DNA of 64,000 nucleotides. Origin: an uncultured Nitrospiraceae bacterium (GTDB lineage: Bacteria; Nitrospirota; Thermodesulfovibrionia; Thermodesulfovibrionales; SM23-35). The notes below the pieces were generated by a model. The model made no database searches. It was not told where the DNA came from and saw nothing but the letters and a program-made list of their open reading frames with translations. The translations under genes were made by a program, and so were the position numbers. This document shows, piece after piece, positions 40,254 to 59,174 of the stretch; within the stretch, counting starts at the first letter, position 1, and each line of letters opens with the position of its first letter. The stretch is from contig CAVSHB010000002.1 of NCBI GenBank assembly GCA_963727775.1, forward strand, positions 32,001 through 96,000. The letters are read 5' to 3'.

Positions 40254-40538
40254 ATGACAAAATCAGTCCTCATAGAAAAAGTATCGGAGAGAATAGGCAG
40301 CCTTACAAGAAAGCAGACCGAGATAGTTATTGAGACTGTTTTTGAAAGCATAAAAGAATCGCTTGTAAAGGGCGAGAAAATAGAAATAAGAGGTTTCGGA
40401 AACTTCAAACCGAAGAACAGAAGACCGAGAAGAGCGAGAAACCCGAAGACGGGGCAGAAGGTTGAGGTACCGGAGAAAAGGGTTCTGCACTTTAAGGTAG
40501 GAAAGGCCCTCAGGGAAGCAATGAACCCCAAAGCTTAA
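40254..40538 (+). CDS. ihfB: Integration host factor beta / HU family
   Basis: MTKS, EIRGFGNF, RNPKTG; synteny after rpsA-sppA. Confidence 0.88.
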   Translation: MTKSVLIEKVSERIGSLTRKQTEIVIETVFESIKESLVKGEKIEIRGFGNFKPKNRRPRRARNPKTGQKVEVPEKRVLHFKVGKALREAMNPKA

Positions 40539-40625
40539 TGGTTTTCTTTCCTCCCCGATATTCATTGGGACATTATTATAATTGCGGTATTTGGATTAAC
40601 GCATAGTCCGCATTATTCATAAAAT

Positions 40626-40738
40626 TGACGACAGATACGGTCTTTGCGCTCATTCCCGGCCCGGTACGAATCGGGCCTCCGAGGTAAATTCTTTCTTCGG
40701 AAGAATTTAAAACCGCTTAAATACTGTACCTGTCGTTA
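40626..40738 (+). repeat. Structured dispersed repeat, copy A (MITE/REP-like element or ncRNA)
   Basis: Long terminal stem enclosing two hairpins; homologous to reverse complement of 57715-57823. Confidence 0.8.
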
Positions 40739-40849
40739 CCCACATATTTTATTAAGGTGGGATAAATTGTATATTCAACCCGGTATGAATAAACATCTGT
40801 CTAAGGCCCTGTCTGTTTATGATAAAATAAATATTTCGGAGAATTATTT

Positions 40850-42403
40850 ATGAAAGGCAAAGTTTATTTAGTCGGCGCAGGTCCGGGAGACATAGGTCTT
40901 CTTACGATAAAAGGGCTGAAATGCCTCAAGAAGGCTGACGTGGTTGTCTATGATTTTCACCTAAACGCACAGGTTTTAAATTATATCAACCACGATGCGG
41001 AGTTCATCTATGCCGGAAAGCGCGGCGGTCACCATACCATGACCCAGGATGATATCAACACTGTCCTTGTTCAGAAGGCAAAAGAAGGTAAAATGATATG
41101 CAGGCTTAAAGGTGGGGACCCCTTTGTATTCGGACGTGGAGGAGAGGAAGCAGAGGCACTGTCGAAAGAAGGGATAGAGTTTGAAATTGTGCCCGGCGTG
41201 AGCTCTGCGATTGCAGCCCCCGCGTATGCCGGGATCCCGCTGACGCACAGACTTTTTTCGTCTTCCTTTGCGGTCATTCCGGGATATGAGGATGCAGCGA
41301 AAAAGGAGAGCACAATTGAGTGGTCAAAAATCGCGACTGGTGTGGGAACACTGGTGTTTCTTATGGGTGTTAAAAATGTGGACCTGATAGCTCAGAAGTT
41401 AATCGAGAACGGCCGTTCATCCGACACCCCCGTCGCGGTTATCAGATGGGGCACAAGACCGGATCAGAAGACGATTGTAGGGACATTGAAGAACATTGCC
41501 GAACTCGTAAAAGAAAAGCATATCAAACCTCCTGCGGTAATGGTTGTCGGAGATGTGGTGAAACTCAGGGGGTCCCTGCAATGGTATGAGAAGAAGCCGC
41601 TGTTTGGCCACAGGATACTCGCAACAAGAGAACACGCTGAAGGGTTTGAACCATTGGAAGAACTCGGCGCTGAGATTATTGAATTCCCGACAATAGATAT
41701 TGTACCTCCTGAAAATTACGAGGAGCTTGATGATTCGATTGACAAAATAACGACATATAACTGGCTGATTTTCACAAGTAGAAACGGTGTGAAATATTTT
41801 TTCAAAAGGTTCCTGGACAAAGATTTGGATATCAGAGAGTTAAAAGGAATAAAGATCTGCGCTATAGGCACAAAAACAGCTGAAGAGCTGAAACATTATG
41901 GGTTAAAGGTTGATTTAGTGCCAGATGAATTCCGGGCTGAAGGACTTATTCAATCGGTTCAAGAGCTTGAGGGTTCAAAGCTTAAAGGTCTCAGATTTTT
42001 ACTCCCGCGGGCCGAGAAGGCAAGGGAGATATTTCCGGAAAAAGTGAGGGAACTCGGCGGAGAGATAGATGTGCCTGTTACATACAGGACGATAAAACCT
42101 GAACATCGCGGGAAAAGGCTGAGGAGGTTTTTGAAAGAGGGAAGAATTTCAATAGCTACCTTTACAAGTGCGGCAACATTCAACAATTTCAGGGACATCA
42201 TGGGAAATGATGCAGAGGACCTCCTCAAAGGAATCACAATCGCGGCCATTGGACCCGTTACAGCAAAGGCTATTGAAAAAGCCGGACTTCGCGTGGACAT
42301 CATGCCGGAAAAGGCTACCATCGAGGCAATGGCAGCAAAGATCATTAAATGGATAAGAGAAAAAGGAAAAAGAGAAATAGAGAATGTGAGTGATTTGTCC
42401 TAA
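40850..42403 (+). CDS. cobA: Uroporphyrinogen-III C-methyltransferase / uroporphyrinogen-III synthase fusion
   Basis: LVGAGPGD, RLKGGDPFVFGRGGEE, then HemD domain (FTSRNGV, FTSA, AIGPVT). Confidence 0.93.
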   Translation: MKGKVYLVGAGPGDIGLLTIKGLKCLKKADVVVYDFHLNAQVLNYINHDAEFIYAGKRGGHHTMTQDDINTVLVQKAKEGKMICRLKGGDPFVFGRGGEEAEALSKEGIEFEIVPGVSSAIAAPAYAGIPLTHRLFSSSFAVIPGYEDAAKKESTIEWSKIATGVGTLVFLMGVKNVDLIAQKLIENGRSSDTPVAVIRWGTRPDQKTIVGTLKNIAELVKEKHIKPPAVMVVGDVVKLRGSLQWYEKKPLFGHRILATREHAEGFEPLEELGAEIIEFPTIDIVPPENYEELDDSIDKITTYNWLIFTSRNGVKYFFKRFLDKDLDIRELKGIKICAIGTKTAEELKHYGLKVDLVPDEFRAEGLIQSVQELEGSKLKGLRFLLPRAEKAREIFPEKVRELGGEIDVPVTYRTIKPEHRGKRLRRFLKEGRISIATFTSAATFNNFRDIMGNDAEDLLKGITIAAIGPVTAKAIEKAGLRVDIMPEKATIEAMAAKIIKWIREKGKREIENVSDLS

Positions 42404-57071: not shown

Positions 57072-57461
57072 CTATATCCATAAAGTTTTTAAGACCATCC
57101 CAAAACTTTTTAATGCATCCTTTATGACATTAGTGGAAACAGGCTTCTCAAAATAAAAAGACGCCCCCAACCTGTAAGCTTTTTTCATTATATCCTGGTT
57201 CCCATAAGCTGTTATCAAGATGATGCGCGTTTCCGGATGACGGTCCTTAACATAACGAATGACCTCCAATCCTTCTTCTCCTGCAAAGCCCGAAAGCCTG
57301 AGGTCCGCGATAACGGCGTCATAAGACTGTTCGTTCAGCAAACCAGCCGCGTCTTCGAAGGTTTCGGCTGTATCCACTTCGACTTCAGGGCATTGGAACA
57401 ATTTTTTAAAGGCAACCAGGATAGTCTTTTCATCGTCTACAACCAATAAATGTTTCGGCAT
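57072..57461 (-). CDS. Single-domain response regulator (receiver only)
   Basis: LVVDDE, IADLRL, ITAYG, EKP; ATG 57461 with AAGGAG RBS. Confidence 0.9.
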   Translation of the reverse strand: MPKHLLVVDDEKTILVAFKKLFQCPEVEVDTAETFEDAAGLLNEQSYDAVIADLRLSGFAGEEGLEVIRYVKDRHPETRIILITAYGNQDIMKKAYRLGASFYFEKPVSTNVIKDALKSFGMVLKTLWI

Positions 57462-57518
57462 GTTTCTCCTTTGTACAGTGCAGCAACAATTATTATCAAT
57501 GCCCTCATAAATATTTAT

Positions 57519-57534
57519 TGCAAAATGAATGCCA
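57519..57534 (-). promoter_or_regulatory. Sigma54 promoter for the receiver/four-helix-bundle operon
   Basis: Minus strand TGGCATTCATTTTGCA, GG-N10-GC. Confidence 0.8.
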
Positions 57535-57617
57535 CGGTAAAAATATGAGAAATGCAAGCAGGACAGCGTTTCAGAATTCGCTGCTTTTTGTCATATTCTC
57601 ATTTTCGCAAAAAGCAG

Positions 57618-57631: not shown

Positions 57632-57714
57632 ATGATGAGAATATGGAAAATGTCGGAGCGGCTACTTCGGAGCGTATGAATAAGATGAAAGCTATCAAGT
57701 ACTAGTTATAAGAT

Positions 57715-57823
57715 TGCCGACAGCTACAGTATTTGAGCGGTTTTAAATTTTTTCGAAGAAAAAATTTACCTCGGAGGCCGCCGCAGCGGACGAGAATGAG
57801 CGCAAATACTGTAGCTGTCGGCA
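57715..57823 (-). repeat. Structured dispersed repeat, copy B, with perfect 21-bp terminal inverted repeats
   Basis: TGCCGACAGCTACAGTATTTG ... CAAATACTGTAGCTGTCGGCA; homologous to 40626-40738. Confidence 0.85.
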
Positions 57824-57851
57824 TCCACAAATTTCATGGATCGAGTGAGAG

Positions 57852-59174
57852 CTAATTGTCTTTACGGAATTTTTTTAGTTTTCGGTATAGGGTCGCCCTG
57901 GAGATGCCTAAGGACTCGGAAGCTTTCAGGGTGTTGCCTCCGAAATGTCTTATGACCGATCTGATATGGGACCCTTCGAAATCTTTTAAATTACCCGTAT
58001 CTTTTTCCGACTCTCCTGTAATACGCAGGGAATCCAGACCCGGAAAATGTTCAGGCAGCAAAGGTTGCCCATGCGCAAGCAGGAGTGCCCTTTCCAGAAC
58101 GTTTCTCAATTCGCGGATATTCCCGGGCCACGGGTAATGTTTTAATACTTGCATTACCTCAGACGATATCATGACATCCGGTGAGCCGAGATTTCTCAGG
58201 GTATAAAGAATAAGCCCGGGTAAGTCTTCCTGTCTCTCCCGTAGAGGAGGGATGTCAATGGGAAGCACGTGGACACGAAAATAAAGATCGCTTCGGAACC
58301 TGCCCTGACGGACTTCTTTGAGGAGATCCCGGTTTGTTGCACAGATCAGCCTGAATTCACTTCTGCGGACCTTTACTTCTCCAAGTCTGCGGTAATGTTT
58401 TTCTTCAATCACCTTGAGAAACTGCGCCTGGACGCCGATGTCCATATCACTGATTTCGTCAAGAAACAGGGTCCCGCCGTCTGCAACCTCGATAAGTCCC
58501 TGCCTGTCCTGTACGGCGGTTGTGAATGCGCCACGCGCATGACCGAAGAGTTCACTGGAGAGCAGATCACCTCTGAGGTTGGAACAATTCACCTCTACAA
58601 ACGGCGCCGTATTGCGCAAGCTGTTTTCATGCAGCCATCCAGCCAAAACCCCTTTCCCGGAGCCGGTTTCGCCTGAAATTAAAACAGGTGAATCGTTTTT
58701 TGCCGCAAGCGAAGCGATCTCGCTAACTTTTTTCATGACAAGACTTTTCCCGAAATAAATCCGGTCTTTTTTCTCAAGCCTCCTGGTAGCGAAGTTCTTC
58801 CGCCGAAGGTCCCCGAGTTCAAGACTCTTTCTTAAAAAAATATCGAGGTCCGTCATGTTGACCGGTTTTGTCAGGAAATTGTCCGCGCCGCGCCGCATAG
58901 CCTCGACAGCTACGGGAATGTCACCGAAACCCGTGACGATAATGATCGGGATATCCGGATAACTTTTCCTGAATTCTATTATCCATTCCAACCCATTTCC
59001 ATCCGGCAGCTTCAGATCGAGCAGGACCGCATCGAAGCGCTGAGACAACAGAGCATCCTGGGCCCCGGACAGGCAAGAAGCTTCCTGGACTGTATAACCC
59101 GCTTTTGAGAGGTATCTCGATAGCCCAAACCTAGTGCCCTCATCGTCTTCGATGAAAAGGATTTTCGGATTCAT
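57852..59174 (-). CDS. Sigma54-dependent response regulator (NtrC family)
   Basis: Receiver, GETGSGK, ELFGH.RGAFTTA (GAFTGA variant), LFLDEI, WPGNIREL, Fis-type HTH. Confidence 0.95.
   Translation of the reverse strand: MNPKILFIEDDEGTRFGLSRYLSKAGYTVQEASCLSGAQDALLSQRFDAVLLDLKLPDGNGLEWIIEFRKSYPDIPIIIVTGFGDIPVAVEAMRRGADNFLTKPVNMTDLDIFLRKSLELGDLRRKNFATRRLEKKDRIYFGKSLVMKKVSEIASLAAKNDSPVLISGETGSGKGVLAGWLHENSLRNTAPFVEVNCSNLRGDLLSSELFGHARGAFTTAVQDRQGLIEVADGGTLFLDEISDMDIGVQAQFLKVIEEKHYRRLGEVKVRRSEFRLICATNRDLLKEVRQGRFRSDLYFRVHVLPIDIPPLRERQEDLPGLILYTLRNLGSPDVMISSEVMQVLKHYPWPGNIRELRNVLERALLLAHGQPLLPEHFPGLDSLRITGESEKDTGNLKDFEGSHIRSVIRHFGGNTLKASESLGISRATLYRKLKKFRKDN

Follow-up and report, generated by a model that had tools for sequence, protein, structure and literature searches.

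A gene-less repeat in an uncultured Nitrospirota genome carries a conserved three-armed fold that recurs in other phyla

Several described systems resemble the repeat analyzed here in part. Type II prokaryotic MITEs with folded interiors include Correia/NEMIS in Neisseria, ERIC/IRU in enterobacteria, RUP and Nezha. Like these, our repeat carries no genes, measures 100 to 170 bp and is present in dozens of intergenic copies, with IS-like terminal inverted repeats (TIRs), a short target duplication and folding into a long hairpin. Unlike in type II MITEs, the best conserved part is an interior junction and not the ends, the interior recurs beyond this phylum, where its flanks are different or absent, the closing stem of the fold varies per copy and can be built from local gene sequence, and there is a strong bias towards sense orientation. 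REP and REPIN sequences, which are thought to act as single-stranded hairpins and can stabilise upstream mRNA, are likewise dispersed extragenic palindromes that often lie just after genes; in REPINs, however, the arms are conserved and the loop is variable, whereas the core element here is the reverse, and the Y1 genes of this system, unlike in REPIN/RAYT pairs, are neither flanked by the element nor do they track its presence. The attC sites of integrons, which act as a folded single (bottom) strand, share with our element a structure that is more conserved than the sequence, a position directly behind the stop codon with a set orientation relative to the gene, and strictly Watson-Crick pairing. 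Yet attC sites have conserved outer boxes, a variable centre and cassette arrays beside an integrase, whereas the core here has a conserved centre and local arms, and its copies are dispersed over all four contigs of the genome. The IS1380 family (PF13701) is represented in the same genome by a 1,657-bp IS with one 448-aa DDE transposase, short inverted ends and 4-bp flanking repeats; the ends of this IS match the outer ends of our repeat, but the core is missing from it. In the literature that we searched, we found no description of a MITE that combines such a core with descent from this type of IS.

Two copies of the repeat, A and B, lie in the window, by which we mean the whole stretch of 64,000 nt that was analyzed. 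The features around them are as follows.

40254..40538, plus strand: HU/IHF-like DNA-binding protein gene, upstream of copy A (PF00216, E 2.7e-31)
40604..40764 (limits approximate), plus strand: whole MITE of copy A, its ends matched by eye to the family and to the IS ends
40628..40736, plus strand: folded core of copy A (covariance model R1, 96.9 bits, E 3e-22), consisting of the P1 closing stem, a 2-bp GC helix, P2 (CUCGG/CCGAG, a CCU bulge and a variable hairpin) and the P3 hairpin
40850..42403, plus strand: cobA-hemD fusion (tetrapyrrole methylase and uroporphyrinogen-III synthase; PF00590, PF02602), downstream of copy A
57072..57557, minus strand: response-regulator receiver gene, downstream of copy B (PF00072)
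57692..57855 (limits approximate), minus strand: whole MITE of copy B with its flanking tetranucleotides, by eye against the family ends
57717..57821, minus strand: folded core of copy B (R1, 100.2 bits, E 4e-23)
57852..59174, minus strand: sigma-54-dependent response regulator gene, upstream of copy B (PF00158, PF00072, PF02954)

An initial annotation of this DNA had described a structured element of about 110 nt, present twice. The likeness of the two stretches was reproduced: 40626-40738 on the plus strand aligns with the reverse complement of about 57713-57825 at a mean column identity of 84% over 145 columns (82.7% over 110 nt by BLAST, E 1e-24), and all three shared blocks that had been quoted were found in both copies. 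Both consist of a long closing stem around two hairpins, as had been proposed, and fold far better than shuffled sequences (copy A at -45.5 kcal/mol, z -6.1; copy B at -57.2 kcal/mol, z -11.3). Co-oriented genes lie upstream and downstream of each copy, as had also been stated; the gene calls are crude longest ORFs, and the genes were confirmed by Pfam. Regarding the base changes between the copies, those in the second hairpin (C-G to T-A and T-G to T-A) are real, while the outer-stem change reported as A-T versus C-G is in fact an A.C mismatch in copy A against a C-G pair in copy B, and is therefore one-sided. In addition, copy A has a private C at position 40656, where the family has a T, which disrupts one pair of an otherwise invariant helix. 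In a 2.8-kb metagenome contig from a close relative, with flanks about 97% alike, 235 other letters replace the 243 nt at 40538-40780, indicating that the intergenic region around copy A differs between strains; this replacement is not an empty site, and no empty site or presence-absence polymorphism was seen. A terminator scanner gave no match at copy A and a single one upstream of it, at 40554-40569. As a separate observation, TGGCATTCATTTTGCA on the minus strand at 57534-57519 has GG and GC 10 nt apart (by eye), resembling a sigma-54 -24/-12 promoter; the sigma-54 activator gene is found upstream of this sequence, and the response-regulator gene just downstream of it.

The term "present twice" proved misleading. 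While the window holds exactly two matches to covariance model R1, namely copies A and B, the 3.43-Mb Nitrospirota genome (G000) from which it was taken holds 73 at E ≤ 0.01. R1 was built from 29 sequences, of which 2 are the window copies and 27 come from other genomes, with a structure set by hand. BLAST and iterated nhmmer searches gave a similar count of about 74 full copies and a few fragments, spread over all four contigs; about 32 copies are roughly 90% identical. Among the 31 genomes searched, G000 included, 24 had R1 matches: 17 of 18 from sister genera, with 3 to 70 copies each, and 6 of 12 from other families of the order, with 1 to 8 copies each. One single copy, L121 (G023:C6:3855-3983), the only one of its genome, sits in sense orientation between NifE/N-like and small NifX/NifB-like genes, as named by eye from their translations.

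We also scanned one genome per species for the exact pattern CGCTCATTCTCG-N(8-30)-CCTCCGAGG, which returned at least 119 loci, mostly from Nitrospirota/Thermodesulfovibrionales among the matches listed; most of the loci listed are without IS-type ends. Outside Nitrospirota, the pattern was matched in a Planctomycetota MAG, Desulfobulbaceae, Competibacteraceae, Nitrospinota, Saccharibacteria and Parcubacteria. Two odd matches, in an archaeal bin and in a 507-bp Elusimicrobiales contig, resemble the Nitrospirota MITE type and may be mis-binned. The pattern scan gave 0 matches in viral contigs, so that carriage by phages is not supported. Searches with the model gave at least 109 to 116 matches in the Planctomycetota MAG, whose cores are without IS ends. 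The Competibacteraceae MAG had 46, a deltaproteobacterial MAG 11, and two CPR genomes 4 and 6. None of 25 genomes taken as relatives of the Planctomycetota MAG had a match at E ≤ 1e-4, a result weakened by their distance, since the same 25 gave no orthologue to a PGM/PMM query at E ≤ 1e-30. Among the genomes around the Competibacteraceae MAG, 1 of 25 had a match at E ≤ 1e-12. Three copies in the latter MAG (L032, L097 and L105) share a flank motif, ATACGGATC...AAG..GTT.CG, 30 to 40 nt upstream of the stem, and two of them have the same stem (by eye); the core seems to ride a different repeat unit there.

In G000, the flanks of the main subfamily are themselves repeated, in the arrangement TAACCCACTTAATTCATAAAATTTGCGGGTG-core-CAATCTTATGAATAGTGTGGGTTA. 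Solo matches to the left end led us to the 1,657-bp IS, whose transposase matches PF13701 with an E of 1.9e-153 and which is present in four full copies and one partial copy, all outside the window.

G000 C1:859654-861310, 1358645-1360301, 1115311-1116975 and 632427-634083: full copies of the IS1380-type IS, 98-100% alike
G000 C3:394642-395347: partial copy of the IS1380-type IS

The IS ends, TARCCCACATAATTCATAAA and the reverse complement TAACCCAGATTATTCATAAA, match the ends of the repeat, TAACCCACTTAATTCATAAA and the reverse complement TAACCCACACTATTCATAAG; the IS itself is without the folded core. The TIR core motif lies beside 44 of the 74 copies (31 upstream, 28 downstream, 15 on both sides), against a background in which either motif is found at about 1% of 2,000 random sites. 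Both ends are recognisable in 13 copies, 8 of which are flanked by identical 4-bp direct repeats (TTAG three times, CTAA twice, TTAA three times). As 5 of these 8 (the TTAG and CTAA cases) are not palindromes, they represent duplications rather than a portion of the inverted repeat. Within the YTAR target lies TAA or TAG, and the target is often a stop codon. The repeat unit is, as expected of a MITE, short, dispersed and without coding capacity at about 160 bp, and the family has both a target duplication and TIRs that match an autonomous IS, while copies A and B have these in degenerate form only. The MITE of copy A begins with TAGTCCGCATTATTCATAAAATTG and ends in ...TTAAGGTGGGATA; that of copy B has degenerate ends and is flanked by TTAG (57855-57852) and ATAG. 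In both copies, the IS-type ends are degenerate and the flanking tetranucleotides agree at three of four positions (by eye); the TTAG beside copy B includes the TAG stop codon of the sigma-54 activator gene, whose ORF ends at 57852. The core of copy B has the standard orientation within its own MITE frame, while that of copy A is inverted relative to the frame of IS-type ends, an arrangement that an automated call finds in 5 copies and inspection by eye in 6. Such a flip would be the outcome expected of recombination or template switching between the stem arms.

It is therefore well supported that copies A and B are decayed IS1380-type MITEs of about 160 bp, and the MITE is likely moved by the IS1380-type transposase of the same genome. 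Of the two readings that the initial annotation had offered, a MITE-like family under structural selection is supported for these two copies: the ends match an IS of the same genome, the best-preserved copies have 4-bp target duplications, and covariation across many genomes supports a structural constraint. The other, a free-standing ncRNA gene present twice, is not supported, given that there are 73 copies which mostly lie just past stop codons. At eight places in G000, a main-subfamily copy lies within 300 bp of a copy from another subfamily (by eye), always in inverted relative orientation, with six pairs facing each other and two facing away; examples are C1:732675-732963, C1:831295-831537, C3:148327-148688 and C2:292803-293066. 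The MITE ends may offer new YTAR targets.

In its anatomy, the folded core combines two variable hairpins with a closing stem (about 20 bp) and a junction of invariant sequence (CGCTCATTCTCGG / CCTCCGAGG / CCGC). From its outside inwards, P1 (about 20 bp) is followed by a U.C/C.U internal loop, a 2-bp GC/CG helix, single-stranded UCAUU, and the invariant helix P2a (CUCGG/CCGAG) with a CCU bulge on its 3' side, which pairs with an inserted AGG in L062 and L118. After P2a come the variable hairpin P2b, a single G, the variable and sometimes branched hairpin P3, and single-stranded AAANCC. The 13+9+4 invariant bases are common to several phyla, in which the flanks are unrelated and IS ends are lacking, while the hairpins can differ wholly in sequence between copies and still retain their pairing. 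Double changes were found at 21 of the 26 pairs predicted by RNAalifold from a plain MAFFT alignment. When 104 matches were fitted to the model, a procedure that by itself favours the structure, 91.3% of the cells were paired, compared to 59.8% for shuffled sequences and 38-43% for slid partners, and double changes occurred at 33 of 38 pairs. The 2-bp helix of the junction shows a compensatory change: all three copies in the Planctomycetota MAG with CACTCA have CCGTTC opposite, turning a G-C pair into A-U, and the single copy in G020 likewise combines CACTCA with CCGTTC. The core is a separate module, much older than the MITE and structurally constrained across phyla. In line with the initial annotation, which had not recognised a known riboswitch, tRNA, SRP or 6S RNA, Rfam gave 0 matches at gathering score over the whole 64-kb window, a single chance snoRNA match outside the element at a relaxed threshold (E 1.2), and 0 matches at E ≤ 1 for 17 loci from several phyla. 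We found no description of the core in Rfam or in the literature searched, and the passages of PMC8632094 consulted contain nothing on the motif.

The closing stem varies in sequence between copies. Among 23 Planctomycetota copies, the pairwise likeness of the cores is 80%, whereas their P1 sequences are unrelated; still, P1 is 93% Watson-Crick paired (468 of 503 pairs) with a mean length of 21.9 bp. Two loci relate the stem directly to the preceding gene. In L153, the 5' arm is made up of the final 13 nt of a Pfam-confirmed PGM/PMM gene, followed by the TGA and 6 bases beyond it; the 3' arm complements all of these exactly (22 of 22). The stem of L151 is perfect over 31 bp and takes in the TAG of a hydrolase gene together with the 9 coding bases before it; the Pfam alignment of this hydrolase reaches the final residue. 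In other words, the 3' arm is either an inverted copy of the upstream flank or is kept complementary to it. The stem length is tightly distributed (median of 20 bp, sd 3-5) across phyla and G+C contents. Insertion into the loops of pre-existing hairpins, or scars of precise excision, were considered and rejected: hairpins that present CGCTCA as the loop on a stem of 8 bp or more number 0 in G000, and the same count for each of 25 control hexamers is 0-2. An 80-kb portion of the Planctomycetota MAG in which 23 elements lie holds just 1 hairpin that lacks the core and has a stem of 11 bp or longer.

The element usually starts 0-50 nt past the stop codon of the gene to which it is sense. Counting the copies between co-directional genes, we found 34 in sense and 5 in antisense orientation in G000 after correction of the context of copy A, which split into 22:1 for copies without recognisable IS ends and 12:4 for those with them. 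The corresponding counts are 7:2 in G006 and 11:3 in the Planctomycetota MAG (G031); the total before correction of the context of copy A was 51:10 (p ~1e-7). The overall sense bias between co-directional genes is about 5:1. The replication strand was rejected as its cause, as there is no GC skew at replichore scale and the skew follows the local gene strand. The initial annotation had taken G-U pairs in copy A to favour the plus strand as RNA, an argument that breaks down across the family, where A.C combinations outnumber G.U pairs on that strand. The sense-strand ratios of A.C to G.U are 105:47 in other genomes (69:34 with similar stems removed), 70:22 in G000 and 16:7 in the Planctomycetota copies. 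Of the pairs in P1, about 3% are G.U, and of those in P3 about 0.6%; non-pairs account for about 10%. Some hairpins are perfect palindromes, and loops are inverted between copies, for example between L016 and L017. Core flips, palindromes, loop inversions and the scarcity of G.U point to processes at the DNA level. The sense bias and post-stop position, which speak for an effect at transcript level, and these signs of DNA-level processes are not reconciled by one simple model, and the A.C excess is unexplained. T-runs follow the stem in some A+T-rich copies and are absent from the Planctomycetota copies (by eye).

The age of individual copies can be judged at one shared site, between pyrK and pyrD. 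In three genera these two genes overlap in TAATG without a spacer. Elsewhere an element lies between them: intact in sense orientation in G000 and G010, intact in antisense orientation in G015, and as antisense remnants in G001, G008 and probably G005. PyrK is only 53-63% identical across the genera in which the element survives. Orthology can still be recognised in the arms of the three intact copies, which show compensatory changes, and P3 is common to G010 and G015, while G000 has other inner hairpins, a pattern that suggests replacement of inner modules.

For copies A and B, gene-less MITEs of about 160 bp with a conserved three-armed fold that are likely moved by an IS1380-type transposase, we rate the chances as roughly even that the core is a selfish module with a putative enzyme as its reader. 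The core would be recognised by this enzyme as a single-stranded fold, which would account both for a helix of invariant sequence and for the bursts that take single genomes past 100 copies. Once enclosed by a pair of IS ends, the core would have been amplified as a MITE. The closing stem would be rebuilt at every locus from adjacent sequence, probably by fold-back copying in replication, and copies antisense to local transcription would be lost or flipped, which would leave the 5:1 sense bias. Against this stand the absence of any enzyme found to track the core and of any empty site seen, the long survival of the pyrK-pyrD copy across genera for functionless DNA, the excess of A.C over G.U by about 2:1 on the sense strand, which neither this reading nor a transcript-level one simply predicts, and the sense bias and 0-50 nt post-stop position, which fit a role in the transcript equally well or better. 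This last point leads to the possible but rather doubtful alternative that the core serves chiefly as an RNA module that acts in cis within the upstream gene's transcript, in which the ~20-bp stem clamps the 3' end after the stop codon as a 3' stabiliser, an RNase III-type site or a cistron insulator; hosts would then keep it, with mobility as its route of arrival only. The orientation counts speak for such a module (34:5 in G000 and 22:1 without IS ends, with 7:2 and 11:3 in two other genomes), as do the start of the element 0-50 nt past the sense gene's stop codon, the narrow stem length across phyla and G+C contents, and the pyrK-pyrD site, where the element is retained with compensatory stem changes in three genera while antisense copies are partly deleted in at least two further ones (G001 and G008). 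However, very rare G.U pairs and more A.C than G.U on the transcribed strand are the opposite of what selection for RNA pairing would leave, there is no consistent U-tract past the stem (by eye), the palindromic loops and loop inversions point to the DNA level, and bursts of 46 to more than 100 copies occur beside relatives with none or one. On balance, a selfish module whose orientation is selected at transcript level, itself about an even proposition, is favoured over a host RNA element for 3' ends, for which we see appreciably lower chances.

Two simpler or more radical readings fare worse. That the repeat is an ordinary MITE, with the fold a by-product of inverted repeats and the core conserved through young copies or gene conversion, seems improbable to us. 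The roughly 90% identity of about 32 copies in G000, the IS-type ends with target duplications, and the inner hairpins of the G000 pyrK-pyrD copy, which differ from those of G010 and G015 between orthologous arms and suggest module replacement, would agree with it; but 13+9+4 bases are invariant in several phyla between which gene conversion is impossible, amid unrelated flanks without IS ends, hairpins that share no sequence are still paired, and the 2-bp helix shows a compensatory change. Still less credible is the idea that repeats carry the core as a new self-cleaving ribozyme, or as some other catalytic or small RNA, in the manner of hammerhead and twister ribozymes. A junction of invariant nucleotides amid stems that covary freely, a patchy distribution over phyla with many copies in some genomes, and an orientation that follows transcription would suit a ribozyme, yet no Rfam ribozyme was matched even at E up to 1-10, a perfect 20-bp closing stem with near-zero G.U would be unusual for one, and no cleavage site can be inferred. 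Returning to the selfish module, a broader and more speculative version, which we put forward tentatively, is that the core may be a new mobile module of cross-phylum range that lands behind a stop codon in the direction of the gene and copies the gene end in reverse to produce the ~20-bp stem, giving a locus-specific hairpin with an invariant three-way junction to be read by the putative enzyme; IS1380-type MITEs would be one of several vehicles. If true, the core would rank among the most widely spread bacterial structured repeats without a name, with tens to more than 100 copies per genome across Nitrospirota, Planctomycetota, Gammaproteobacteria, Desulfobacterota and CPR. Its combination of a base-conserved junction, a stem of local sequence and a fixed orientation to transcription would represent either a new route of DNA mobility or a new signal at transcript 3' ends. 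In practical terms, the family inflates the number of intergenic structured-RNA candidates in these lineages, and should be masked or modelled in ncRNA screens.

Several candidate partners and relationships were examined and rejected. No reverse transcriptase (PF00078) was found in the Competibacteraceae MAG with its 46 copies, no neighbouring protein recurs around the 74 copies in G000 and 45 loci elsewhere, and five genomes with a single or few copies have no common neighbour. Integron attC sites were dismissed, as the core has ends unique to each copy, an invariant centre and dispersed copies. Mimicry of the Nus-factor boxA was dropped because the core is only partly like the rrn boxA sequences of this genome, GCTCTTTGAAAA and GTTCTTTGACAAC. 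Membership of the REPIN/RAYT class was rejected since the arms are the variable part, contrary to the conserved arms of REPs. Nor are Y1/RAYT genes (PF01797) flanked by the element: only 2 of 12 Y1 loci have an element within 3 kb, and the presence of Y1 does not track that of the element, as G029 has 8 copies without a Y1 match while G022, G026 and G027 have Y1 without the element. The REPIN-like variant of the earlier MITE reading thus finds no REPIN/RAYT link. As a separate observation, two of the six IS200-type Y1 transposase genes in G000 (161 aa; C1:672113-672727 and C3:133614-134228) are followed by a MITE about 140 nt later; as the intervening sequence is identical, the gene and the MITE seem to have been duplicated as one unit.
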